IMG/VR virus record: IMGVR_UViG_2654587746_000005
Origin: a virus
Lineage: Duplodnaviria > Heunggongvirae > Uroviricota > Caudoviricetes
Strand: one strand, 5' to 3'
DNA: 35,651 nucleotides
A program made the position numbers and the translations under genes. This document shows positions 1,641-20,933 of this stretch, piece by piece. Positions within the stretch are counted from its first letter, which is position 1. Each line of letters opens with the position of its first letter. The notes below the pieces were generated by a model. It was not told where the DNA came from. It was given only the letters and a program-made list of their open reading frames with translations, and ran no database searches.

Positions 1641-4112
1641 TTAAGAATCAGCCTGACTCGGGATCAGTTTTTGCCAGATAGCTGAAACGTATTTTGCCTG
1701 GTAACGGGCGTCATCAAGTGCATTATGGCGCTCACCTTCGAATGGAATAGCCGTTCTGGCATCGAAGTCTATGGCTTTCCCCAGCTCAACGATTGTGCGT
1801 ACATCGCGATCGTTGTAGTAACGCCACGGGCAGGGGATCCCCTGCCGTTCGTATGAACGGCGCAAAATCGTGTTGTCGAAGTTGGCTCCATTTCCCCAGA
1901 CATGAACAAAAAATTCACCGGAGTTTTCGTCGATAAATTCCCGCAATTGTAACAGTGCATCATCTAACGGGATTTCATCGGTCATAATGGCAGATTGCGC
2001 TTCGCGTGATTGTTTAAGCCACCATTTAATGGTGTCCCGATCAATGACTCCGCCAGCAGTTTCCAGATCGATAGTCTTACTAAATTCCGGTCCCATATCT
2101 CCGGTTTGCGGATCGAAAAATATTGCACCTATTGAGATAATCGGGGCATCGGGATTTTTTCCCATGGTTTCAAGGTCGATCATTAGATGGTCACACGTCC
2201 TGCTGGTGGATGTGATTTCGTGATGACCGTTCACCTTAATTGAGTGATCTGCCGTCTCGCCAGTTTCATTATCGCTATTGTGATGCTGATTGCCGCCAGT
2301 GTTCTCCTTGTGTGGATGTTCAGCGCCTTCCATTTCCTCCGGATCATCTTCCTGAACTTCAACCTGATACTCTTCATCGAATGTTTCTTGGTATGTTGTG
2401 TCGCCCATCACCGCGCCACAATCAGGGCAGTTGCCGCCGCCGGTCTGACCGCAGGCGGTGCAGACTTTTTCCACTTCCTGTTGCGCCACTGGTTCAGGCT
2501 GTTTCGTTTCTGGCTCGTTTTGTAACGCATTTGTGCTGTTTTGTTCCGCTTTTTGGTAGTTCCGTTCCGATTCATGCTGGTTCTGGTTCACAGAATCGCG
2601 GGTCTGGATCCCCTTAACCCATTTCGGATCATTCGGGTCACTAATCCCTTCAACAAATTCACCACGTGATGCAGCAAGCAACTTATCGGCGTCAGGCTGG
2701 CTGATATTGGCTGCCTGCATAATTTTGTTTACTTCGTCAGCGGTAACTTTTATCGGCTCTGGTTGTTCTGAATCTTCAGCGGTATCTACATTTTGCGGTA
2801 AGCCCGTGTATGTGCCATTTTTTCGGGCAAAATATTCTTCTTTTGTGATTTCAGTGGCGCCAGCAGCCAGTGCCTTATCCAGACCAGAAAGTTTGTTTGT
2901 GCGACCGTATTTTTCTCCGTCCTTATCTGCGAAGAGGAAATAGAACGGCCCCTCACGCTCTACAGATGGTTCAGCTTCCGGCGCGGTTTCATTTTTTGGG
3001 ATATCAGATACCTCAGTTTCCACTGCATCAGTTTGTGTTTCTGATGACTGGAGAACATCAACAGTGCCCAGGTCTGTTTCTTCATTCTCAAACACGCCCT
3101 TTGTCGTCAGGTATTCGCAGATATATTTGTTCAGTGCTATGGGATCTTTGTGAATGTCGATCGGACGCTCACGGACAAGGCCAAAAATAGTCTGGCGGTC
3201 GTAGCGAAGGGCATCAGGCTGTTTGCGCATTGATGCCGAGATACGCTTCCAGTCTTCGCGGTCGTTGTCGATAACTTCTTTTTTTGCCCAGCGATGGATG
3301 CTGCCGTCAATGTTTCCGGCATCCACATCACCAGGCCAGAGAGCGTAGGCCAGTTCGTCATCCAGTGTTTTCCATGTCTGCTTGTATTCGCGATGAATGG
3401 CAGCAATGACCGGGCTGATTTTTCCTGTTGAATTTTCAGTGTACTGTTGATTGGCTCTGGCGCGGGCGAGATCAACAACAGACGTGTATTTTCCGGTTTC
3501 CTTGCGTTCACCTTCGCGACGTTTTTTCCAGATGCGCATCTCTGCCTGAATTTCGGGCCATTTAGCACCAGGAATACATTTATGCTTAACCCACCCAATG
3601 GCGTGCAACTTAAGCTCCGGATACATGGCGTTAACTTCTGGCATTTTCATCAACGCTTCAACGATATGTCCGTCGAATGTTGCCATGTCTTCCTGCAACA
3701 ATTCCTGTGCGCTAATAACCATATCAACGGTGATGTTTTCACATGTGTCGAACTTAACCATGACAGCGTTCTGTACTTCAGGGGCCAGCTTGTCAAAAGT
3801 GACGTTCATCGGATCGGATTCAGTCTCAACCGGGACAAAAGAAGCAGACTCCTCATCCCAGCGGTTTTCCTGCATATATTCAGCATCCCATGAATCGAGG
3901 GCAGGGCGGGGTATGCCAGGTTTATCCTCGCAGACAATAAATTTATAAGCGCAGTCCTGAGCAGCCGGATAATGTTCCAGGAACTGCCAGTGAAATTTTG
4001 CTCGAGCACGGCGTTCGTCGCCAGCTTCAATGGCTGTGGCTACAGCCACAGCGCCTTCTTCCCTTGTTGCCAGTTCGTCAGGAATAGCGGCGCAAATAAA
4101 GACTTTACTCAT
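1641..4112 (-). CDS. RecE-family (exodeoxyribonuclease VIII-like) protein with C-terminal DnaQ-like DEDDh 3'-5' exonuclease domain
   Basis: 823-aa ORF. The central segment DKLLAASRGEFVEGISDPNDPKWVKGIQTRD matches recalled RecE sequence. A zinc-ribbon CxxC...CxxC (CTACGQ...CPDCG) is present. The C-terminus carries DEDDh motifs (MIDLET, WGNGANFD, HNALDDA). Confidence 0.8.
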   Translation of the reverse strand: MSKVFICAAIPDELATREEGAVAVATAIEAGDERRARAKFHWQFLEHYPAAQDCAYKFIVCEDKPGIPRPALDSWDAEYMQENRWDEESASFVPVETESDPMNVTFDKLAPEVQNAVMVKFDTCENITVDMVISAQELLQEDMATFDGHIVEALMKMPEVNAMYPELKLHAIGWVKHKCIPGAKWPEIQAEMRIWKKRREGERKETGKYTSVVDLARARANQQYTENSTGKISPVIAAIHREYKQTWKTLDDELAYALWPGDVDAGNIDGSIHRWAKKEVIDNDREDWKRISASMRKQPDALRYDRQTIFGLVRERPIDIHKDPIALNKYICEYLTTKGVFENEETDLGTVDVLQSSETQTDAVETEVSDIPKNETAPEAEPSVEREGPFYFLFADKDGEKYGRTNKLSGLDKALAAGATEITKEEYFARKNGTYTGLPQNVDTAEDSEQPEPIKVTADEVNKIMQAANISQPDADKLLAASRGEFVEGISDPNDPKWVKGIQTRDSVNQNQHESERNYQKAEQNSTNALQNEPETKQPEPVAQQEVEKVCTACGQTGGGNCPDCGAVMGDTTYQETFDEEYQVEVQEDDPEEMEGAEHPHKENTGGNQHHNSDNETGETADHSIKVNGHHEITSTSRTCDHLMIDLETMGKNPDAPIISIGAIFFDPQTGDMGPEFSKTIDLETAGGVIDRDTIKWWLKQSREAQSAIMTDEIPLDDALLQLREFIDENSGEFFVHVWGNGANFDNTILRRSYERQGIPCPWRYYNDRDVRTIVELGKAIDFDARTAIPFEGERHNALDDARYQAKYVSAIWQKLIPSQADS

Positions 4113-4205
4113 TTTGTTTTAACCTCATGACAGATTTAAGGATGAACAAATCCCTGCCATTGCTGGCATATAAGAATGAAACCGGATATTTATTACGGAA
4201 CTGTT

Positions 4206-4397
4206 TTAAAGACCTGCCGGGATTTCGATATTATCCTGGTGAATAACTTTATCGACCGGGTAACAGTTACCGGGAATTTTCTGTTCGGTTGCTGCTGTCA
4301 TACACTCCTGCATTGTCCTGTGAACACTGACTGCAATATCAACTGGCTCTCCGGAAACAAGAAAAACTGTCAGAACAAGCGCAAATGCTGAATTCAT
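4206..4397 (-). CDS. ydfD: YdfD-like small membrane/lysis protein (63 aa)
   Basis: Internal ATG gives 63 aa (MNSAFALVLTVFLVSG...) with an N-terminal hydrophobic helix. Its start overlaps the dicB stop, as in the Qin dicB-ydfD arrangement. Confidence 0.55.
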   Translation of the reverse strand: MNSAFALVLTVFLVSGEPVDIAVSVHRTMQECMTAATEQKIPGNCYPVDKVIHQDNIEIPAGL

Positions 4398-4582
4398 TGT
4401 GCACATCCTTTTGGCATCAGACGTAAACGAGCCAGCATTGAAACAATGCATATTTTATTTAATAGCTCCCGTTCTTGTTTTCTCTTGTTAATGGCATCTT
4501 CAGTAAATACAGGGTTACTGATAGTGACACCAATTTCAAAACAACCTTCAGACGTATTAACGTTTGGTAATAACGTTTTCAT
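4394..4582 (-). CDS. dicB: Cell division inhibitor DicB (62 aa)
   Basis: Translation from the internal ATG gives MKTLLPNVNTSEGCFEIGVTISNPVFTEDAINKRKQERELLNKICIVSMLARLRLMPKGCAQ, which matches recalled E. coli DicB. It lies directly downstream of a DicF-like sRNA. Confidence 0.75.
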   Translation of the reverse strand: MKTLLPNVNTSEGCFEIGVTISNPVFTEDAINKRKQERELLNKICIVSMLARLRLMPKGCAQ

Positions 4583-4751
4583 TATCGCGTCCTCAACAAT
4601 GAATTTTGTGATGCAGTGCCTGGTGCCTCCAGGTGACGTTAACCAGTTAACAATTAACGCCGGATACAGAGAATCCACCCATAACACTGTTTTTGGTTTT
4701 AACTGTTCCGCGTGCGCTTAGCCGCATTCACCGCATCACAAAATTCACTTT

Positions 4752-4808
4752 AAAAACGGCGGCAGAGCAGTCACGGAGTAAAACTGATACCGCCAAACGT
4801 CACTAACA
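4752..4808 (-). ncRNA. dicF: DicF small regulatory RNA with intrinsic terminator
   Basis: Minus-strand sequence GTGACGTTTGGCGGTATCAGTTTTACTCCGTGACTGCTCTGCCGCCGTTTTT matches recalled DicF (ftsZ-targeting sRNA). A GGCGG...CCGCC stem is followed by a T-run. It sits between the ydfA-like gene and dicB, as in Qin. Confidence 0.75.
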
Positions 4809-8570: not shown

Positions 8571-8800
8571 GTACATCGGCTACCATTCTCGACATGTGCT
8601 GTGGCAGTCGCATGCTCTGGTTCGATAAGAATGACGAATGGTCGATATTTAGCGATATCAGGAAAGAGGAACATTCGCTATGTGATGGACGTCACCCGAT
8701 TATTAATCCCGACATTATCGCTGATTTTCGTGCGCTGCCGTGGTTGTCTGCTTTGCATCAAAAGCAGACATTACCAGATTTAGACATCTGTTTCCGATAG
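8567..8800 (+). CDS. Short ORF with SAM-methyltransferase motif-I-like N-terminus (ILDMCCGS...), possibly a truncated methyltransferase remnant
   Basis: About 77 codons from a GTG. It carries a hh-D-h-x-C-G-S glycine-loop-like signature but lacks the rest of an MTase fold. Weak call. Confidence 0.25.
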
Positions 8801-8832
8801 CCCGTTCTGATGCTACACTTTTTGCTATTTTC

Positions 8833-9519
8833 ATGAACCTCATAAACACATTTATGACTGTTGCTGATTTCAAACGCCCCAAATTGGAGCTCCCAAACGG
8901 GGCAAAAAAACTATTACTGCACTCTTGCTGTGCTCCATGTTCCGGTGAAGTGATGGAGGCGCTTCAGGCCTCGGGAATCGACTACACCATCTTTTTCTAC
9001 AACCCGAACATTCATCCTCAGAAAGAGTATTTAATTCGTAAGGATGAGAATATTCGCTTTGCTAAACAACACGGCGTGCCATTTATTGATGCTGATTACG
9101 ACACAGACAACTGGTTTGAGCGAGCCAAAGGAATGGAATGGGAGCCTGAACGAGGGATCCGTTGTACCATGTGTTTTGACATGCGTTTTGAGCGGACTGC
9201 GCTGTATGCCGCTGAAAATGGTTTCAGTGTGATCAGTAGCTCACTGGGCATTTCACGCTGGAAAAATATGCAGCAGGTTAACGACTGTGGACGGCGAGCC
9301 GTCGCGTATTATCCGGGCATGGTGTACTGGGATTATAACTGGCGAAAGCAGGGCGGCTCTTCCCGCATGATTGAAATCAGCAAGCGCGAACAATTCTATC
9401 AGCAGGAATATTGTGGCTGCGTGTATTCACTGCGCGATACCAATCTACACCGCAAATCTCAGGGACGCCCTCTAATCAAAATTGGTCAACTCCACTACGG
9501 TAAAGAAGGCCAGGAATGA
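8833..9519 (+). CDS. queH: QueH-like (DUF208) Fe-S protein, putative epoxyqueuosine reductase
   Basis: Conserved cysteine motifs are present: [15 protein letters not shown] and YCGC, in a protein of about 220 aa. The start is ambiguous (ATG 8833 or 8863). Confidence 0.7.
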
Positions 9520-9634: not shown

Positions 9635-10074
9635 CTTGTTGAAATTAGAGGAAATCTTGCAGCCATGATATGGCTTAAAATAACGTTTGATTATTTTACC
9701 TGCTGTTTGTCCCTGGTTTAAAGTCGGTTGTCTGATTTGATTACGCGCAACTGACGCTTACGTATTGAAGTAACGAGCACGAAGACACATATTTATCAGT
9801 GCCTGTATACGTCAAGAGCAGGAGATTTATGTGCTGGTTCTCAAATGCACGCTGGCTATTGTGGCTGTAATGGCAATTTATTGTCTTGTTATTGTTCTTA
9901 TGGATCACCTTTCTGATTGATTTCATATTGGAGAGGTAACGGTAGTTAAGTAGAATGGCTGCGGGTGCTTGAGGCTATCTGCCTCGGGCATGAACACCAA
10001 CGGCAGATAGAGAAAAGCCCCAGTTAACATTACGCGTCCTGCAAGACGCTTAACATTAATCTGAGGCCAATTTC

Positions 10075-10287
10075 ATGCTAGACACATGTAGGTTAGCCTC
10101 TTACGTGCCGAAAGGCAAGGAGAAGCAGGCTATGAAGCAGCAAAAGGCGATGTTAATCGCCCTGATCGTCATCTGTTTAACCGTCATAGTGACGGCACTG
10201 GTAACGAGGAAAGACCTCTGCGAGGTACGAATCCGAACCGGCCAGACGGAGGTCGCTGTCTTCACAGCTTACGAACCTGAGGAGTAA
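10075..10287 (+). CDS. mok: Mok-like in-frame leader ORF of the hok locus
   Basis: 70-aa ORF that is an in-frame N-terminal extension of hok, as recalled for chromosomal mokC/hokC. Confidence 0.55.
   Translation: MLDTCRLASYVPKGKEKQAMKQQKAMLIALIVICLTVIVTALVTRKDLCEVRIRTGQTEVAVFTAYEPEE
10132..10287 (+). CDS. hok: Hok/Gef-family type I toxin (51 aa)
   Basis: MKQQKAMLIALIVICLTVIVTALVTRKDLCEVRIRTGQTEVAVFTAYEPEE matches recalled HokD/RelF. It is followed by an intrinsic terminator. Confidence 0.85.
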   Translation: MKQQKAMLIALIVICLTVIVTALVTRKDLCEVRIRTGQTEVAVFTAYEPEE

Positions 10288-12151: not shown

Positions 12152-12168
12152 TTTTGTGGAGTAAGTTG

Positions 12169-12546
12169 ATGCGTGATATTCAGATGGTTCTTGAGCGTTG
12201 GGGGGCATGGGCGGCTAATAATCATGAAGATGTGACCTGGTCGTCCATTGCCGCCGGTTTTAAGGGATTAATTCCTTCAAAAGTAAGATCTCGTCCGCAA
12301 TGCTGTGACGATGACGCGATGATCATTTGTGAATGTATGGCTCGCCTGAAAAAAAACAACAGCGATTTACATGATTTATTGGTGGACTATTATGTCGGCG
12401 GCATGACTTTTATGGCGCTTGCACGTAAGCATGGGCGATCTGATTGTTGGGTTGGCAGGATGCTCCAGAAAGCTGAGGGCGTAGTGGAGGGCATGCTGAT
12501 GGTGTTGGATCTCCGATTGGAGATGGATGCTGATTGTTCGAAATAA
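12169..12546 (+). CDS. Late-gene antiterminator Q (QuuD-type, about 125 aa)
   Basis: ATG with [33 protein letters not shown]... matches recalled DLP12 QuuD-type Q. It sits directly upstream of a promoter/terminator-like region and the lysis cassette. Confidence 0.7.
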
Positions 12547-12645
12547 TTAAAGGAAAAGTTGCTGTCTGATTTTCATTAGTCTAACATTTTAAATGTTGGA
12601 ATCGCAACGTAGTTATTATCATATAACAGCTTATTTCCTGATTTA

Positions 12646-12673
12646 GCCAGCCTCCCCAAAGGCTGGTTTTTTT
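12646..12673 (+). terminator. Intrinsic terminator (CCAGCCT-loop-AGGCTGG + T7), candidate tR'-like target of Q downstream of a putative late promoter
   Basis: Perfect 7-bp stem and T-run read from the sequence, about 100 nt after the Q stop. This is analogous to lambda PR'-qut-tR'. Confidence 0.5.
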
Positions 12674-12701
12674 CTAATAAGTATCATTTCGGGTGGGGAT
12701 T

Positions 12702-13226
12702 TTATTGTTTAACCCATAATAGTTCATTGACATTGAATCCCAACTTTTGAGCGGTACGCACATAGTCTGCTTTTACATTATCTGGAATAGTTTGGGTCCT
12801 TGCCAGAATCCATAGGTATTCTCTGTTCGGACCACTGACAAGAGCATACTTATACTCATCATCCAGTTTGATTACATTATAGCCACCATAGAAGGGGCCA
12901 AAAAACGAAACTTTCAACGCTGCAGTTTTAGTATCTCCAGTAAAGTATGCTTTACCTTCGCTCTCGCTCCATTTGTTTTTCGTTGGATCGTATCCACGGT
13001 TAAGTACGCGAATCCCTCCGTCGTTCCGTTTTTCATAAGTAGCGCTGACCTGTTCCAGACCACGTTCGAACCAGTTCTCGAGGCGAGCTATTTCATACCA
13101 TTTTCCGAGGTAGCGGTTGGCGTCAAAATTTGTAATCGGCTGCACACCTTTAGGTGGTGTCGGGGCCTTACATGCTATAAGAGTGAAAGAGAGTGCAATG
13201 CCAGTCAACACAGGCCATAACTTCAT
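12702..13226 (-). CDS. Blc-like outer-membrane lipocalin lipoprotein
   Basis: 174 aa with a signal peptide and lipobox (LIAC). Lipocalin motifs NFDANRYLGKWYEIAR and KVSFFGPFYGGYNVI closely resemble recalled E. coli Blc. The gene is on the opposite strand to the late operon. Confidence 0.8.
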   Translation of the reverse strand: MKLWPVLTGIALSFTLIACKAPTPPKGVQPITNFDANRYLGKWYEIARLENWFERGLEQVSATYEKRNDGGIRVLNRGYDPTKNKWSESEGKAYFTGDTKTAALKVSFFGPFYGGYNVIKLDDEYKYALVSGPNREYLWILARTQTIPDNVKADYVRTAQKLGFNVNELLWVKQ

Positions 13227-13418
13227 AATAAATCCTGTACTTTTGATAGTTGAGAGTAAGTATGAAAGATAGATGAGTACGACCGATCACTTAAAGAACT
13301 TTCCTACTATATTAGGAATAGTCAATAACAGAAAAATTGTCAGTGATGAAGCCAGAAAGGCAATTTAGTCCGTTCACTACAAAGTTTATGTGTTAATGAA
13401 TTAGTCAAGGGGGAGGAA

Positions 13419-14378
13419 ATGATAAAAAAACCTGTGATTGGGATCAGCGGTTGTTTGGGCGGTTCTGCTGTTCGTTTTGATGGTGGTCACAAAAGAGATG
13501 ACTTTTTAATGGACAAATTAGTGGAATGGGTAACATTCAGACCAGTATGTCCGGAAATGGCTATAGGGCTGCCAGTTCCGCGTCCTGCTCTACGACTTGT
13601 GCGCTCGAAGCAAGGAAATATACGGATGTGTTTCAGCCACGACCAGAATGAGGATGTGACAGAGAGAATGACAGAGTTTAGTCGTTCTTATATGGACAAA
13701 TTAAAGGATGTATCGGGGTTTGTGGTTTGTGCTAAATCTCCCAGCTGTGGCATGGAGCGCGTGCGTGTCTATGATGAAAATGGTAATCGAGGTCGTAAAG
13801 ATGGAGTGGGACTATTTACGAGCACTTTGATGGAAAAGTTTTCCTGGCTACCGGTTGAAGAGGATGGGCGATTACATGATCCAGTGCTTCGTGAGAATTT
13901 TATTGAAAGAGTTTTTGCTTTGCATGAGCTCAATCACCTTTACAAGGAGAAATTATCAAGAAGAGAGTTATTAGCTTTTCATAGTCGTTATAAGCTTCAG
14001 TTGTTGGCGCATAGCCAGGCAGGCTATAAAGATATGGGACCATTTGTGGCTGCAATACACGAGTGGGCGGACCTTGAATCATACTTTGAGGTGTATCGTG
14101 ATAATCTGATGGCGATTCTCAGAAAACCAGCATCACGTAAAAATCACACGAATGTGCTGATGCATATACAGGGGTATTTTAGTAATTACTTAAGTACACG
14201 CCAGCGTAAAGAGTTGAGCGAGGTTATACTTAACTATCGCTTTGGCACATTGCCTCTTCTTGCGCCGTTGACTCTGCTGAAGCATTATCTGGGTGAGTAT
14301 CCTAATGATTACTTGCTTACACAGAACTACTTCGATCCCTATCCGGAAGAACTGGCTCTAAGACTGATGGTGAATTAA
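13419..14378 (+). CDS. Two-domain protein: N-terminal DUF523/TudS-like [4Fe-4S] domain fused to C-terminal DUF1722/YbgA-like domain
   Basis: TudS-type motifs are present: GISGCLGG, PVCPEMAIGLP and AKSPSCGM (three Cys plus Glu/Ser). The C-terminal half resembles YbgA. RBS AGGGGGAGG is upstream. Confidence 0.7.
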   Translation: MIKKPVIGISGCLGGSAVRFDGGHKRDDFLMDKLVEWVTFRPVCPEMAIGLPVPRPALRLVRSKQGNIRMCFSHDQNEDVTERMTEFSRSYMDKLKDVSGFVVCAKSPSCGMERVRVYDENGNRGRKDGVGLFTSTLMEKFSWLPVEEDGRLHDPVLRENFIERVFALHELNHLYKEKLSRRELLAFHSRYKLQLLAHSQAGYKDMGPFVAAIHEWADLESYFEVYRDNLMAILRKPASRKNHTNVLMHIQGYFSNYLSTRQRKELSEVILNYRFGTLPLLAPLTLLKHYLGEYPNDYLLTQNYFDPYPEELALRLMVN

Positions 14379-14784
14379 CTGTATGCGATATCATCTGAAA
14401 GTGATGAGTTCCTGTATGCAGGATATTTACAATCGTAAAAACTACGCTATGATGCTCATAGTGTCAGTTTTTATAAAAATCCTGTTCACGCTAAAGAAGA
14501 CATTGAGATGCAATTTAATGTTGGTAAACATACCAGCCCCAAAAGATTTTATTCAATCTGTTTTTATATGAAGATATTTCAAGTGAATATTAAGAGCATA
14601 TAATATTATTATTGCACGCAGCTATTATAATATAACAGATTAGTTTAATGATTTGTTTTTTGTGAGTTAAACACATGGTTTTATAGTTGTGATGCAATGA
14701 GATTTTCCTTATTGTTGAACTGGCGAATATTGATTTTCCACCTATACTTACCTGGTGTAACCCCAATGATATCAGGTGGATAAT

Positions 14785-15498
14785 ATGCCATACATATGTT
14801 CTATCATTTTGGTGTTGAACTCGTTTGGTGTCCGAATTGGTAAAGAAGATATTTTGTTTAAAAAAGGAAATGCTGTCCTCATTGAATACAATTTAAAAGA
14901 TCTTTTTTCGTCAAATACAGATCATCTAATGATCGTAGATGTTGAGGAGAAAACAGTTAATGATTTCTTTAAAAACTACACACTCTCACCTTTTTCTGTA
15001 AGAAGGTTTTATCCGTCATACTTGATAGTAGAATGTGAAGATTTTTCATTGTTAAAGAACTTGGTTGCATGCTTGAATTGTGATAGCAAAACCGTGGATG
15101 TAGTTAGAAATCAAATATCACTTGCATGTCTTGCTGTCTTATCTTCAGAGAAAATAGTGCAAAGTTTTTTGTTCGGAAGTCTTAATAGCTTAGGTTGTAA
15201 AGTTAAGGCTATTATTCACTCGGATATCTCTGCGTCATGGAGACTTTGTGATATATCTTCAAGATTATATATGAGCGAGAGTTTGTTAAAAAGAAAATTA
15301 AAAGACGAAGGATTATCGTTTAGTAAATTAATTCTTGAAGAACGAATGATGATGGCGCAAAGATTATTGATCTACAGTAACCATACTGTCGGCAAGGTGG
15401 CGGGAATATGCGGGTATGACAATGCATCATATTTTGTAAGTGTTTTTAGAGGATATTTTGGTGTGCCTCCGCACCAATATTTATCAAGATTTTCTTAG
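14785..15498 (+). CDS. AraC/XylS-family transcriptional regulator (AppY-like)
   Basis: Very AT-rich gene. The C-terminus has the AraC double HTH (…SESLLKRKLKDEGLSFSKL…GYDNASYFVSVFRGYFGVPPHQY). The N-terminus and overall layout resemble recalled prophage regulator AppY. Confidence 0.8.
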   Translation: MPYICSIILVLNSFGVRIGKEDILFKKGNAVLIEYNLKDLFSSNTDHLMIVDVEEKTVNDFFKNYTLSPFSVRRFYPSYLIVECEDFSLLKNLVACLNCDSKTVDVVRNQISLACLAVLSSEKIVQSFLFGSLNSLGCKVKAIIHSDISASWRLCDISSRLYMSESLLKRKLKDEGLSFSKLILEERMMMAQRLLIYSNHTVGKVAGICGYDNASYFVSVFRGYFGVPPHQYLSRFS

Positions 15499-15568
15499 AA
15501 GATATGATGTGATGGCATTTTATAAAGTTATTTTTTGAAGTGTAAGATTATACGATATTTTTAGCTAC

Positions 15569-15598
15569 GCCAGAATAATTGCTGGCGTTTTTCTTTTT
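15569..15598 (+). terminator. Intrinsic terminator after the AraC-family gene (ACGCCAG-loop-CTGGCGT + T-run)
   Basis: Stem-loop and T-tract read from the sequence. Confidence 0.5.
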
Positions 15599-15688
15599 GA
15601 ATAGATGTTCGGGCCTTACGCTAATGTAACTTCTTTCCTTCTTCGAACCAAACCGTGTACACCATCCGTTATCTGCGGAGGTGAGGCT

Positions 15689-15904
15689 ATGAAATCCATG
15701 GATAAGTTAACAACGGGCATCGCCTACAGCACCTCTGCAGGCAGTGCTGGCTACTGGTTTTTACAGTTGCTCGATAAAGTCACGCCCTCACAGTGGGCGG
15801 CAATAGGTGTATTGGGTAGTCTGGTATTTGGCATGCTGACGTATCTGACAAATCTTTATTTCAAGATTAAAGAAGACAGGCGTAAGGCTGCGAGAGGAGA
15901 GTAA
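15689..15904 (+). CDS. S21-type class II holin (pinholin) with dual-start motif
   Basis: [71 protein letters not shown] closely matches recalled phage 21 S (the S71/S68 dual-start MKSM...). RBS GGAGGTGAGG is upstream. Confidence 0.85.
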
Positions 15905-17244: not shown

Positions 17245-17607
17245 ATTAATATTAAATCGGATTATTTTTAGCGCTGAATGTGAAATTTAAATAAAAAGGA
17301 CTCTTCCATGAGTCAAAATCCTTGAAATCTTAAGGGTAAGATAAAAGGTCATTAGACAGAATGACACGTTTTATTAATAAATAAAGCTATTGTTTCATTC
17401 GTGTGTTTTTCTTTACAAAAGTAATCCTTGCTATGGTTGGTTAATCATGCGTTAATGGTGTTCTGGTTTGTTACAAAATTATCTGAAGCAGTCATTGTTA
17501 TAATTTTATTATTTGTACCTCTTGAGATTTCCTTGTTGGTTTTTCTCTCTGATATTTTTTTTCGGACCATTCTGCCCAAGGGCTAACTTCTTCAAAAGGT
17601 AATAATG

Positions 17608-17820
17608 ATGTCTAACAAAATGACTGGTTTAGTGAAATGGTTTAACCCTGAAAAAGGTTTTGGTTTCATCACGCCGAAAGATGGTAGCAAAGATGTGTTT
17701 GTGCATTTCTCAGCTATTCAGAGCAACGATTTCAAAACGTTAACTGAGAATCAGGAAGTCGAATTTGGTATTGAGAACGGACCTAAAGGCCCTGCAGCTG
17801 TTCATGTAGTGGCACTTTGA
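17608..17820 (+). CDS. CspA-family cold-shock protein
   Basis: [23 protein letters not shown]...VHF... shows canonical RNP1/RNP2 cold-shock domain motifs. A long AT-rich 5' leader lies upstream. Confidence 0.9.
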
Positions 17821-18023
17821 GGTAGAAAATATTACAAACCATATTCACTTTAGATGCCCGTGTTGCCATGGTTCTCAGTATAGAACATCATCTTTTGATG
17901 TTTCTGACAGAAATCCTTTCGGGGCAAAATGTATCTTTTGTAAATCAATGATGATTACATTTGATAATATTTCACAATACTTAAATGTTAGCCATCTGTC
18001 GTTAGATTTAAGAAAGTGAAAAT

Positions 18024-18048
18024 GAAGGCTCCTTCGGGAGCTTTTTTG
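18024..18048 (+). terminator. Intrinsic terminator-like hairpin (GGCTCC-TTCG-GGAGC + T6)
   Basis: Read from the sequence, about 200 nt downstream of the csp stop. Confidence 0.4.
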
Positions 18049-18091
18049 CTTAGTGTCTAGTCGATGGATACTCACATATTACGGTAACATT

Positions 18092-18322
18092 ATGAAAAAA
18101 ATAATAGTTTTTTTTAACTCTGAACCAGCAATGGTAGTGCCAGTGATGACCGGAGTTAACACCATCATGCGTGAATATCCAAATGGCGAAACAACACACC
18201 TCACTGTAATGGCTGCAGGGTTTCCATCTCTGACCGGAGATCATAAAGTCATTTATGTAGCAGCGGATCGACATGTAACTTCAGAAGAAATTCTGGAAGC
18301 AGCAATGAGACTCTTGAATTGA
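18092..18322 (+). CDS. Hypothetical small protein (76 aa)
   Basis: ORF just upstream of the IS left end. Weak RBS. No family recognised. Confidence 0.3.
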   Translation: MKKIIVFFNSEPAMVVPVMTGVNTIMREYPNGETTHLTVMAAGFPSLTGDHKVIYVAADRHVTSEEILEAAMRLLN

Positions 18323-18454: not shown

Positions 18455-18880
18455 TCAATCAGGTGTTGACTGACTCTGAACGTAGGCTCTGAGCGTTTCA
18501 ATCGTTGCCCCTCCGGTGCTACAGACAAAGTACGATCTCGACCACAAAAGCCCCGTTTTACTCTGCATACGTAAATGCGCGTTCTGCTGGCGTAGCAAAC
18601 GTGATGATACCGATTTTAAATTATTGACCATCACACTGACCGCCAGTTTTGGCGGGTAGGCCACCAGCAGGTGTACATGGTCTGGCTCCCCGTCCATCTC
18701 AATAATTTCGCATTCAAGCTTTGCCGCAGCGGAGCCAAAAGCCTCACGCAACTGAGCGATCATCTGACTGTCGAATAGTTTGCGTCGATACTTTGTCGTA
18801 AAAATAAGGTGCACAACCAGCTTACTGACACTGTGTCGTTTGCGGAGAAATCCCGCCAGTAAATCATCATGATTACTCAA
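18455..18880 (-). CDS. tnpA: IS200/IS605 Y1 (HUH) transposase TnpA
   Basis: 141 aa with the HUH motif (HVHLLV) and a C-terminal catalytic Tyr region (RSYFVCSTGG). Size is typical. Confidence 0.85.
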   Translation of the reverse strand: MSNHDDLLAGFLRKRHSVSKLVVHLIFTTKYRRKLFDSQMIAQLREAFGSAAAKLECEIIEMDGEPDHVHLLVAYPPKLAVSVMVNNLKSVSSRLLRQQNAHLRMQSKTGLLWSRSYFVCSTGGATIETLRAYVQSQSTPD

Positions 18881-18936
18881 TTGATATATTCACCTAAAGT
18901 GTTAAAATAAAAGCATTATATCAATGAGCGCTGACT

Positions 18937-20106
18937 ATGTTAAGAGCAACAAAAGTACGCATCTACCCGACACCAGAACAGGCTGAATTTATCAACGCCC
19001 AGTTCGGTGCAGTGCGTTTTGCGTACAACAAAGCTCTGCATATCAAGAAACATTCTTACCAGCGGCACCGCGTAAATTTAAACCCGCGTAAAGACCTCAA
19101 ACCACTGCTTGCAGTGGCGAAGAAATCCCGCCGGTATGGATGGCTTAAAGAATATGATTCTATTGCGTTGCAGCAGGCGGTAATTAACCTCGACGTGGCT
19201 TTTTCTAACTTTTTCAATCCGAAACTGAAAGCAGGTAAACCTACCTTTAAAAGTAAACACGGCAGACAATCGAGCTATCATTGTGTTGGCATAAAAGTCC
19301 TTGATGGTGCGATAAAAATACCGAAAATCTTGCCGATTGAAGCGCGTTTACATCGTGAAATTACGGGAATGCTGAAAAGTATCACGTTGAGCCGCAGCGC
19401 AACCGGGAAATACTACGCGTCGTTACTCTGTGACGACGGGATGGAAGCGCCGGCAAAGCCCGCACTGATATCAAATGTGACAGGGCTGGATATGGGGCTG
19501 GCGCATTTTGTCATCAAATCGGACGGCAATAAAATTGCCAGTCCCCGCCACCTAATCAATGCAAGTCGCAACCTGCGCCGGAAGCAGAAAGCACTGTCCC
19601 GTAAGAAAAAAGGGAGCGCAAACAGGCGCAAAGCCAGAATACAACTTGCAGCCGTTCACGAACGGGTAGCCAGTGCCCGTGCCGATTTCCAGCACAAGTT
19701 ATCTCGCGCAATTGTTGACGAAAACCAAGCGGTAATTGTCGAGACATTGAAAACGGCAAATATGATGAAAAATCACCATCTGGCTCGTGCGATAGGCGAT
19801 GCTGGATGGTCTGGATTCATCACAAAACTGGAATACAAAGCAGCAGAGAAAGGTGTGCATCTGGTGAAACTGGATCAATGGTTCGCCAGTTCGAAAACCT
19901 GCCACTGCTGCGGTCACAAAATGTCGGAGATGCCATTACATAAGCGCATCTGGCAGTGTCCAGAGTGTGGAGTTGAACATGACCGCGATATCAACGCGGC
20001 GCTCAACATCAAACGCAAGGGCATACTGGAATTACAAGCGGCGGGACTCGTCGTTTCTGCCCATGGAGGCCAGCGTAAATCCGTCACACAGACGGTTGCG
20101 GCTTAA
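18937..20106 (+). CDS. tnpB: TnpB (OrfB) RuvC-like RNA-guided nuclease of IS605 family
   Basis: 389 aa with an N-terminal OrfB region, RuvC motifs and a C-terminal zinc finger (CHCCGHK...CPECGVEHDRDINAALNI). Confidence 0.85.
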   Translation: MLRATKVRIYPTPEQAEFINAQFGAVRFAYNKALHIKKHSYQRHRVNLNPRKDLKPLLAVAKKSRRYGWLKEYDSIALQQAVINLDVAFSNFFNPKLKAGKPTFKSKHGRQSSYHCVGIKVLDGAIKIPKILPIEARLHREITGMLKSITLSRSATGKYYASLLCDDGMEAPAKPALISNVTGLDMGLAHFVIKSDGNKIASPRHLINASRNLRRKQKALSRKKKGSANRRKARIQLAAVHERVASARADFQHKLSRAIVDENQAVIVETLKTANMMKNHHLARAIGDAGWSGFITKLEYKAAEKGVHLVKLDQWFASSKTCHCCGHKMSEMPLHKRIWQCPECGVEHDRDINAALNIKRKGILELQAAGLVVSAHGGQRKSVTQTVAA

Positions 20107-20257
20107 GAAGTGGGAAGCCTCGCCCGACAGGGCGGGGAGCAGTCACACCGTCGTATGTTGATTATTGCGATGTTTCATCTTATCTTTTATACGTTTGCTC
20201 CATATAATTGACACTACTGTGTACCAGGACAGTCATAACAGACTAAAAGAGGAAATG

Positions 20258-20431
20258 ATGAACATTGAAGAGTTAAAAACAAAAACAGAAGCAGATATTT
20301 CTGAATATATAACAAAAAAAATCATTGAGCTTAAGAAAAAGACCGGGAAAGAAGTTACCAGTATCCAGTTTACTGCACGGGAAAAAATGACTGGTCTTGA
20401 AAGCTATGATATCAAGATTGATTTAATCTAG
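20258..20431 (+). CDS. GnsA/GnsB-family small protein
   Basis: MNIEELKTKTEADISEYITKKIIELKKKTGKEVTSIQFTAREKMTGLESYDIKIDLI matches the recalled Gns family (57 aa). Confidence 0.75.
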   Translation: MNIEELKTKTEADISEYITKKIIELKKKTGKEVTSIQFTAREKMTGLESYDIKIDLI

Positions 20432-20726
20432 CATGTTTATAGTATTAGCATCAATTTCTCATCAGATGCTATTCAACAATACAAATTACTCATAAACCTC
20501 GTTTTTACGGGGTTTTGTTATATTTAAACATTACCGAATAGATATAAATCTCGATTGTCGATGGTATTGGTTGTGTGACAATACCTAGTCTTTCCGGTAT
20601 GCCTGAAGAGAATACAAACGACAGATTATGTAAGGGAAACGCGCTGAAACTTTCACTCTTTCATGCTGAGTGATTTGACGTTATATTTTTAGCCGCAAGT
20701 GAAGAGCAAACGAATGGAGCGACAAA

Positions 20727-20933
20727 ATGCATAAAGATCAATACACTGATGCCCCCTCCCAGGAGCAGGTTCGTGTAAAAACTATGCTTAATAGCACCAT
20801 TTCGATGGGTTACCCGGATGTTGTAATTGCATGTATAGAACATCAAGTATCTCTGGAAGCATTCAGGGCAATTGAGGCCGCGTTAGTAAAGCACGATAAG
20901 AATACGAAGGATTATTCCCTGGTGGTTGACTGA
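20727..20933 (+). CDS. Conserved lambdoid right-arm small protein (68 aa) preceding cos
   Basis: Sequence (…[38 protein letters not shown]…YSLVVD) resembles the recalled small ORF near the right end of lambda. Function unknown. Confidence 0.5.

Follow-up and report, generated by a model that had tools for sequence, protein, structure and literature searches.

We describe a three-gene accessory cassette in a 35,651-nucleotide (nt) stretch of viral DNA (IMG/VR record IMGVR_UViG_2654587746_000005; hereafter the window, meaning this stretch at its full length). Between the antiterminator gene Q and the holin gene of this Qin-like lambdoid prophage of Escherichia coli lie three intact open reading frames (ORFs), whose translations identify them as a lipocalin, a fusion of a TudS domain with a DUF1722 domain (RudS), and an AraC-type regulator. 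We consider it highly probable that they form a composite cassette, assembled in the Q–lysis slot from two parts of different history. The first part (~12676–14400) would be a divergent lipocalin/RudS pair, captured long ago from an enterobacterial chromosome without its MerR/MlrA-type regulator, and the second (~14400–15657) a very AT-rich, stand-alone regulator gene of the YdeO/AppY/PatE group. Its left end falls within the final codons of one Q allele, with which it appears to move between prophage backbones.

The two parts can be told apart by composition as well as by divergence. The regulator gene has a GC content of 0.335 versus 0.435 for the other two genes, and its synonymous divergence (dS) between the cassette lineages found in different phages is 0.32–0.58 versus 0.05–0.30. 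The intergenic DNA follows the same division, with spacers that are 57–79% identical between lineages in the second part, versus 89–94% among the three lineages for the lipocalin/RudS spacer (13227–13418) of the first. The higher dS and the more diverged spacers of the second part argue that the two halves have different histories.

Gene content and limits of the cassette

The genes and spacers of the block, with the genes that border it, are as follows:

12169–12546 (+), Q antiterminator (quuD/933W-type, PF06530; Pfam 171 bits)
12702–13226 (−), lipocalin lipoprotein, putative RudS-adjacent Blc paralog, 174 residues
13227–13418, divergent lipocalin/RudS intergenic region, 192 bp, GC 0.34
13419–14378 (+), predicted RudS-type transfer RNA (tRNA) 4-thiouridine (s4U) desulfidase (TudS/DUF523 + DUF1722 fusion), 319 residues
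14379–14784, AT-rich spacer 5′ of the regulator, GC 0.31
14785–15498 (+), AraC/XylS-type regulator, putative PatE sister clade, 237 residues; longest ORF from 14776
15689–15904 (+), S21-type holin (essD-like, 71 residues), first gene of the lysis cassette (Pfam Phage_holin_2_1; 216 nt in RefSeq relatives)

According to Pfam, Q is preceded on the left by ydfU (DUF968), and the holin is followed on the right by ydfR, a lysozyme gene, and rzpQ. The longest Q reading frame starts from a TTG at 12154, and the annotation of RefSeq relatives gives a gene of 378 nt with the start at 12169; its product is 79–83% identical in amino acid sequence to the Q proteins of Stx1a and Stx2a phages over residues 1–120 only. 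The start of the regulator is most likely the ATG at 14785, as judged from alignment with relatives and from RefSeq annotation. Shine-Dalgarno-like sequences, read by eye, precede the start codons of the lipocalin (CAGGAT), RudS (GGGGGAGG), and the regulator (GGTGGA). A 62-residue ORF at 14383–14571 was rejected as a gene, since it lies in spacer DNA with indels and 57–79% identity between lineages.

A preliminary description of this DNA had located the block between a Q gene with a tR′-like terminator and the holin, and had assigned each gene its own ribosome-binding site. Both points are borne out by the coordinates (Q at 12169–12546, terminator at 12645–12675, holin from 15689) and by the Shine-Dalgarno-like sequence in front of each of the three start codons. 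Its placement of the holin start at 15605 was wrong, as RefSeq relatives and alignment put the ATG at 15689.

The limits of the variable slot were set by comparison with five relatives, which carry nmpC, cspB/cspF, tRNA-stx2, a methylase, or a lone regulator in this place. The homology breakpoints define a slot of ~12529–15657:

12508–12528, left breakpoint, inside the last Q codons; the match to DLP12 quuD stops at 12528, those to the Q genes of PhiR40_1 and Stx2a_F422 at 12508–12509
15658–15671, right breakpoint; homology resumes at 15660 (K-12 Qin), 15669 (DLP12), 15671 (PhiR40_1), 15658 (L080), and 15662 (L081)

The content between Q and the holin varies from one relative to the next:

K-12 Qin (different Q type): ynfS, cspF, cspB, ynfU
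DLP12 (quuD): nmpC, antisense
933W-type Stx2a phage (Q 79–83% identical): ileZ-argN-argO-stx2AB
PhiR40_1 (Q 92.5% identical): a short ORF in reverse orientation, plus a DNA adenine methylase

The slot is thus the one that was named in the preliminary description as carrying stx or nmpC in related phages (nmpC in DLP12 and tRNA-stx2 in the 933W-type phage). The limits proposed there, 12547–15604, captured the slot but stopped 18 bp short of its left end and ~53 bp short of its right end. The view that the block is a horizontally acquired accessory module is likewise supported, with stronger evidence from comparison than from composition: only ~21% of complete E. coli genomes match the cassette, which is therefore not part of the core.

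The fusion protein is a predicted tRNA 4-thiouridine desulfidase

RudS has been defined as a TudS–DUF1722 fusion with s4U-removing activity on tRNA (Jamontas et al. 2024; PMC11417400). In this family, three cysteines hold a [4Fe-4S] cluster, and the catalytic Glu, two Ser, and Arg, together with a Ser-Arg pair in DUF1722, are E51, S111, S113, R60, and S243-R244 in RudS_KT (PMC11417400). Overexpression of RudS lowers s4U and reduces the growth delay induced by ultraviolet A (UVA) light, and in other bacteria RudS genes are found in light-responsive operons (PMC11417400). The family member RudS_vir from phage 1H12 (NC_049947 gp66) lowered tRNA s4U in E. coli on overexpression and gave the shortest lag on 4-thiouracil (PMC11417400).

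Both domains are recognized in the window protein far above the Pfam cutoffs (2-thiour_desulf, 137 bits, residues 7–149; DUF1722, 136 bits, residues 192–309). Its C12, C44, and C110 align with C10, C43, and C104 of TudS and occupy the same positions as those listed for RudS_vir. The residues E46, R55, S107, S109, and S239-R240 are also present, and are invariant in the three phage lineages; their counterparts in RudS_KT (E51, R60, S111, S113, and S243-R244) were located through conserved motifs and the spacing relative to the cysteines rather than by direct alignment. The residues retained are those whose mutation abolished or reduced the activity of RudS_KT (PMC11417400). Furthermore, the window protein is 92% identical to that of the 1H12 group, in a comparison made with Lambda_ev087, which has the same nucleotide match pattern as 1H12. 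The preliminary assignment as TudS/YbgA-like was essentially right, and can be sharpened on the strength of the domain fusion, the essential residues, and the 92% identity to the RudS_vir group: as far as its sequence can tell, the protein is a RudS tRNA 4-thiouridine desulfidase.

The lipocalin and RudS are paired in enterobacterial chromosomes

The divergently oriented lipoprotein of the preliminary description is confirmed at 12702–13226 on the minus strand. It belongs to the Lipocalin_2 family (PF08212, 146 bits) and scores 312.6 bits with the NCBIfam model of the Blc subfamily (NF007786), where the cutoff is 267. The N-terminus, MKLWPVLTGIALSFTLIAC-KAPTPP, contains the lipobox LIAC with Cys19, followed by Lys20 in position +2, as expected of a protein that is lipidated at Cys19 and goes to the outer membrane. 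Over the mature protein it is 62.6% identical to E. coli Blc, compared to 78% for the lipocalin next to RudS in Citrobacter sedlakii. Both the identities and the conserved neighbor differ from those of blc, and we therefore regard the protein as the RudS-linked paralog and not as the E. coli blc ortholog. The label "Blc-like" in the preliminary description thus holds at the level of the subfamily model, but not if taken to mean blc itself (62.6% versus the 76–80% seen with most RudS-adjacent lipocalins).

This linkage emerged from a scan for relatives of RudS with one genome per species, which returned 64 loci, 62 of them chromosomal. The best chromosomal RudS proteins, from Citrobacter, Kluyvera, Klebsiella, Enterobacter, Leclercia, and Pectobacterium, reach no more than 76% amino acid identity to that of the window. 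Of the 62 chromosomal loci, 42 have a lipocalin gene upstream of RudS in divergent orientation, with an identity to the phage lipocalin of 76–80% in most loci and 68–70% in two; the RudS paper (PMC11417400) does not mention this linkage. C. sedlakii has the two genes side by side, with 188 bp between them versus 192 bp in the window. In C. amalonaticus, RudS ends a run of genes for a short-chain dehydrogenase/reductase, an amine oxidase, a cyclopropane fatty acid synthase, and DUF2878 and DUF3833 proteins (Pfam assignments), a run that we take to resemble photo-oxidative-stress clusters. Such a resemblance fits the presence of RudS genes in light-responsive operons (PMC11417400). In Enterobacter and Leclercia, ~1.45 kb separates the lipocalin from RudS and, in the E. 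cloacae example, contains genes for an MlrA-type MerR regulator and a transthyretin-like protein. In Salmonella, RudS_ST is under a MerR-family regulator (PMC11417400).

At the nucleotide level, the cassette and the chromosomal loci are homologous only within the two coding regions, at 65–75%, which suggests that the capture is old and leaves no recent donor that can be named. No homolog of the cassette regulator is found in any of the chromosomal RudS loci.

The regulator belongs to a sister clade of PatE

Residues 161–237 of the regulator match the HTH_18 and HTH_AraC models of Pfam. The best NCBIfam equivalog model is that of YdeO, with 112 bits against a cutoff of 348. The regulator is 48% identical to ECs_0287 of E. 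coli Sakai, a protein encoded at the end of prophage Sp1 that is taken, by position only, to be PatE (z0321, OI-8); the identity is distributed unevenly, as the N-terminal halves share only 35% of their residues and the DNA-binding halves 65%, and the first recognition helix, SESLLKRKLK, is the same in both proteins. Full-length alignments give 31% identity with AppY and 29% with YdeO. The regulator is therefore not an ortholog of YdeO, AppY, or PatE, but represents a sister clade of PatE. The "AppY-like AraC regulator" of the preliminary description was correct as to the AraC type and the group; PatE (48%) is nearer than AppY (31%).

In a search of 5.8 billion proteins, no closer named relative of the regulator was found. 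The search returned the three cassette alleles, rare relatives at 60% and 50% identity, and then the PatE group at 47–48%. The genes for the 60% and 50% relatives are found by themselves, each right after a Q of another type, and that for the 50% relative immediately precedes an S21 holin–DUF1327–lysozyme cassette like that of the window. In phage phiSTEC1575-Stx2k, a relative with 38–39% identity (4001–4714) lies between Q and the tRNA-stx2k genes, and an iraM-like anti-adaptor gene follows further downstream. This arrangement indicates that in some phages AraC-type regulators of the group share the late operon with Shiga toxin. Taken together, the lone relatives after other Q types and the relative in the stx2k phage suggest that the clade is a recurrent, stand-alone moron of the Q–S slot.

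The viable phage mEp332, whose record is a complete genome with a K-12 host, has past its tail-fibre genes (3492–4244) a gene whose product shares 99% identity with ECs_0287; the presumed PatE is thus still carried by such a phage.

PatE, PsrB, and AppY are described as activators of the acid-resistance genes gadE/hdeA (PMC10877973, PMC10057817). With 65% identity to PatE in the DNA-binding half, gadE and hdeA come into consideration as targets of the cassette regulator as well, although that it acts on these two genes specifically is a possibility that we would hold with some reserve.

Lineages, selection, and base composition

Three cassette lineages can be distinguished, the window type, the IdasGreatGrand type, and the 1H12/ev087 type, all with identical gene order and orientation. 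Relative to the window, amino acid identities in the IdasGreatGrand and 1H12/ev087 types, respectively, are 97% and 96% for the lipocalin, 97% and 92% for RudS, and 86% and 76% for the regulator. Pairwise ratios of nonsynonymous to synonymous divergence (dN/dS) across the lineages are 0.08–0.23 for the lipocalin, 0.11–0.22 for RudS, and 0.20–0.24 for the regulator, and values of 0.08–0.24 imply that all three are maintained as coding genes.

Base composition was compared to the 27 other genes of the window, which have a GC content of 0.494 ± 0.047 and a GC content at third codon positions (GC3) of 0.497 ± 0.081. The regulator gene, at 0.335 and 0.307, lies 3.4 and 2.3 standard deviations (SD) below these values. 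The lipocalin (0.438 and 0.411) and RudS (0.433 and 0.406) are both only ~1.2 SD low and overlap with the ordinary prophage genes int, rem, ydfR, and cspI, yet they are far more AT-rich than their chromosomal orthologs (GC3 0.41 versus 0.57–0.82). The "visibly AT-rich block" that had been reported is thus real for the right-hand third, that is, the regulator and its spacer, and marginal for the lipocalin and RudS; set against the flanking genes, the regulator is distinct, while the other two genes are barely distinguishable.

Distribution

Among 5426 complete E. coli genomes, 1154 have matches to the cassette, with a cover of at least 80% in 883. The paper that defined the family states that E. 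coli is without RudS (PMC11417400); this is untrue for about one-fifth of the complete genomes, which carry the prophage cassette. The Q allele together with its leader is found in 1078 E. coli genomes at a cover of at least 80%, and from these numbers the cargo and the Q allele travel together. Neither this link to a single Q allele nor the make-up of the island from two modules of different origin had been recognized in the preliminary description. The integration sites include rspB/ydfJ (Qin), the lambda attachment (att) site between ybhC and bio, and tRNA-Arg/intD (DLP12). The cassette is also present in 12 sequenced phages, among them IdasGreatGrand, 1H12, and the Lambda_ev series. No report of the cassette as one unit came up in the literature under its gene names or its RefSeq protein accessions.

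In the E. coli B lineage, RudS is interrupted by the insertion sequence (IS) IS3 after approximately codon 49 (REL606). In C41(DE3) and B-DidR, the match to the cassette ends at the same point, and both the remainder of RudS and the regulator appear to be gone from these strains. Two short contigs of the metagenome-assembled genome (MAG) D148_maxbin.008, labeled "Candidatus Nanosynbacter sp.", carry 89–98% identical copies of Q-lipocalin-RudS-regulator, which almost certainly reflect binning contamination and not a gene of Saccharibacteria.

Transcription signals and proposed mode of action

The candidate transcription signals of the cassette are as follows:

12560–12588 (+), candidate pR′-like promoter, TTGCTG-17 nt-TAACAT, read by eye
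12645–12675 (+), tR′-like intrinsic terminator directly 3′ of Q, 9-bp stem (12645–12668) followed by T7
14444–14473 (+), hairpin 3′ of RudS, ΔG −13.3 kcal/mol, z score −5.1
15567–15598 (+), intrinsic terminator 3′ of the regulator, at the right end of the cassette, 7-bp stem (15567–15588) followed by TTTTTCTTTTT

The hairpin after Q has a folding free energy (ΔG) of −14.9 kcal/mol and a z score of −3.9; none of 200 shuffled sequences folds as well, and the terminator is conserved in IdasGreatGrand and Lambda_ev087. The hairpin after RudS keeps its stem in the other two cassette lineages, where the T-run is degraded, and may act as a weak or partial terminator. The hairpin before the holin (ΔG −11.3 kcal/mol, z score −2.9) is common to the three cassette lineages and absent upstream of essD and essQ in K-12. 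The pR′-like element is present in all three lineages (with TAATGT in ev087) and falls below the threshold of the consensus scan, so that we regard it as a late promoter only tentatively. A scan for consensus promoters gave no more sites than in shuffled sequence, and none in the intergenic regions of the cassette. About 35 nt upstream of the regulator ATG, a block at ~14696–14756 with a TATACT −10-like element is conserved, though the rest of the spacer has diverged. Rfam recognizes no known RNA family in the cassette, its sole sub-threshold match there being the hairpin of the post-Q terminator, and the window contains no tRNA genes.

The anatomy of the cassette, its distribution, the conserved residues, and the selection on its genes are seen in the sequences themselves; the following mode of action is a proposal that draws on lambda late-gene regulation and on the published work on RudS, PatE, PsrB, and AppY. 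In the lysogen, the post-Q terminator would halt the constitutive transcript from the late promoter, and the three genes would rely on weak or silenced promoters of their own; very AT-rich spacers are of the kind typically silenced by H-NS. The lipocalin would be exported and lipidated to the outer membrane, and RudS would lower the s4U content of tRNA, and with it near-UV cross-linking, the photosensitivity of translation, and the growth delay. The regulator would act on AT-rich host promoters, with the gadE/hdeA acid-resistance circuit as the foremost candidate. Upon induction, Q-modified RNA polymerase would read through all three hairpins, such that RudS and the regulator would be co-transcribed with the lysis genes, as is stx, and the lipocalin transcribed antisense, as is nmpC. 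We infer this read-through from lambda biology, and it fits the orientations of the genes.

One could go further and suppose that the lipocalin–RudS pair is a conserved Enterobacteriaceae module for protection against near-UV and photo-oxidative damage, which combines membrane-lipid handling with s4U erasure and was captured into a phage late operon; we offer this as a speculation that is more probably wrong than right. If true, lysogens would have better UVA tolerance, or late phage translation would be shielded during an induction set off by light-associated damage.

Several observations weigh against the reading of the cassette as a composite of two functional parts that act in this way. 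Among the RudS enzymes compared on tRNA, RudS_vir had the lowest activity (PMC11417400), and the regulator is only 35% identical to PatE in the N-terminal half, so its signal and regulon may differ. Some hosts dispense with the genes: IS3 splits RudS in REL606, CUVET20-1667 has IS1 in place of the regulator, and two chromosomal copies of the 94% type, one at the lambda att site and one at the DLP12 site, have a regulator that is annotated as frameshifted. As regards promoters, alignment of the leaders of the Q alleles of DLP12, PhiR40_1, and Stx2a_F422 in search of a late promoter (pR′/qut) revealed nothing conserved beyond the cassette lineages, and a scan of both strands of the spacer gave no consensus σ70 promoter for the lipocalin or RudS. 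Finally, the trio is never seen apart in sequenced phages, which would also fit a single functional unit instead of two independent modules.

Alternative explanations

The last point leads to an alternative in which the trio is one co-adapted unit, selected as a whole, with the AraC-type regulator as the replacement for the lost MerR/MlrA regulator and in control of the lipocalin/RudS promoter region. All 12 phage records with the lipocalin/RudS pair also have the regulator, and vice versa; three diverged lineages keep the same order and orientation; and the chromosomal pair normally comes with a dedicated regulator, which is missing from the cassette. However, proximity in a 3-kb slot explains co-inheritance without common function, the regulator clade occurs alone in Q–S slots, and the pair is without this regulator in every chromosomal locus. 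GC content, dS, and spacer divergence moreover differ sharply between the halves, and the characterized relatives of the regulator act on host regulons, all of which makes a co-adapted trio unlikely. Slightly easier to entertain, but still improbable in our view, is that the cassette serves mainly the lytic cycle, with RudS and the regulator made in bulk after an induction that is often UV-triggered and RudS erasing s4U, so that near-UV cross-linking of tRNA would not stall late translation. RudS and the regulator are indeed sense-oriented between Q and the holin, the terminators on either side should be no obstacle to Q-modified polymerase, the promoter scan gave no strong independent promoters, and the C. 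amalonaticus cluster resembles, as we assume, photo-oxidative-stress operons. The published effects of RudS overexpression (lower s4U and a shorter UVA-induced growth delay) and the light-responsive RudS operons of other bacteria also point in this direction (PMC11417400). Yet the lipocalin is antisense to late transcription, s4U erasure may be too slow for a short latent period given the low activity of RudS_vir, and the cassette persists in defective prophages that cannot enter the lytic cycle.

That the cassette is decaying, non-functional hitchhiking DNA of cryptic prophages would account for the IS3 in RudS of REL606, for the IS1 that accompanies loss of the regulator, and for the two genomes with a frameshifted regulator. 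It is very hard to reconcile with dN/dS values of 0.08–0.24 for all three genes across lineages, with intact ORFs in viable phages and a full set of RudS catalytic residues, and with the retention of at least 80% of the cassette in 883 genomes, and we give it little credence. A function in anti-phage defense or superinfection exclusion is the least probable of the explanations considered, and one we would almost discount. Prophage accessory slots often hold defense genes, and some prophages exclude other phages by means of outer-membrane lipoproteins (Llp, Cor); here the lipoprotein would similarly mask a receptor, or tRNA de-modification would hamper an incoming phage. None of the three proteins matches a PADLOC model, however, no toxin or nuclease-type effector is encoded, and the lipocalin/RudS pair is a conserved chromosomal arrangement at loci where no Q gene was detected and where, in the four loci examined, ordinary chromosomal genes surround it. 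The composite cassette with two parts of separate origin thus remains the reading that we prefer.

Other features of the prophage

The early region encodes an epoxyqueuosine reductase of the QueH family (8740–9519, +; Pfam 219 bits), which would be a second tRNA-modification enzyme on the prophage. The queH gene is found in 995 of the 5426 E. coli genomes, mostly as an allele with 93% identity; the window allele occurs in only 72, and a 99% identical copy in phage HannyBb. Tight linkage between queH and the RudS cassette is not seen.

A second AT-rich accessory patch lies just past the lysis genes (17250–18250, GC 0.33–0.38) and holds a cspA-type thermoregulator in a 5′ untranslated region (Rfam, 17450–17866) together with a cspI-like cold-shock gene (17605–17820); another AT-rich dip is seen at 20250–20750. 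Between the csp cluster and the terminase genes is an element of the IS200/IS605 type (18455–20106), which consists of genes for a Y1 transposase, TnpA (18455–18880, −), and a TnpB with a Cas12f1-like TNB domain (18937–20106, +). Two RNAs score above the Rfam gathering thresholds, the sok antitoxin RNA of a hok/sok (hokD) module (9963–10137, +) and the small RNA DicF (4757–4808, −). The prophage gene phiv142-3 orf10, which raises capsule expression, was considered and rejected as a match, as one of its two knockout-primer homology arms, the arm compared, has no counterpart in the window.

Significance and comparison with known systems

The occurrence of RudS in E. coli on prophages, in about one-fifth of complete genomes and including the B lineage with its IS3-broken copy, corrects a published statement. 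RudS also gains a conserved partner gene and a phage context, so that its physiological role becomes testable in an easy system. In addition, an abundant and uncharacterized sister clade of PatE recurs in Q–S slots, including next to stx2k, and may link prophage carriage to acid-resistance and virulence regulons.

Apart from the prevalence of RudS, its pairing with the lipocalin, and the clade of the regulator, the cassette is ordinary mosaic cargo of a well-known variable slot. It shares with the classical morons of the Q–S slot (stx1/stx2 with tRNAs, nmpC, and cspB/cspF) the location from Q and its terminator to an S21-type holin, as well as homologous flanks, and the nmpC of DLP12 is antisense to late transcription just as the cassette lipocalin is. 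It differs from them in cargo content and in that its left junction falls within the end of Q, which ties the cargo to one Q allele.

The closest known counterpart of the fusion protein is RudS_vir of 1H12, which is the same 319-residue TudS–DUF1722 fusion with Cys12/44/110 and is encoded in the same Q-lipocalin-RudS-regulator-holin context. The window RudS belongs to a different allele lineage (91% nucleotide identity) on a Qin-like backbone, whereas 1H12 has a Jouyvirus backbone. The paper on RudS_vir dealt with the gene in isolation, with no discussion of its neighbors or prevalence (PMC11417400). The chromosomal loci of Enterobacter and Leclercia, and STM1389/ORF319 of Salmonella, have the same divergent lipocalin upstream of RudS, with amino acid identities to the phage proteins of 70–76% for RudS and 76–80% for the lipocalin across chromosomal loci; like C. 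sedlakii, and unlike Enterobacter and Leclercia, the phage copy is without the MerR regulator and the transthyretin-like gene. With E. coli Blc (PDB 1QWD, 2ACO, 3MBT), the cassette lipocalin has in common the Lipocalin_2 family, the lipobox, and an outer-membrane-type +2 residue, but its conserved partner is RudS and not ampC/sugE.

The regulator, finally, resembles the prophage AraC-type activators PatE, PsrA/PsrB, and AppY in size, architecture, an N-terminal M..CS(V/I)I motif, a C-terminal half with two helix-turn-helix units, and low GC content, where the comparison by sequence covers PatE, AppY, and YdeO, and PsrA/PsrB are likened by description only. The genes of PatE and AppY lie beyond the tail-fibre genes, whereas the clade of the cassette regulator occupies the Q–S slot.

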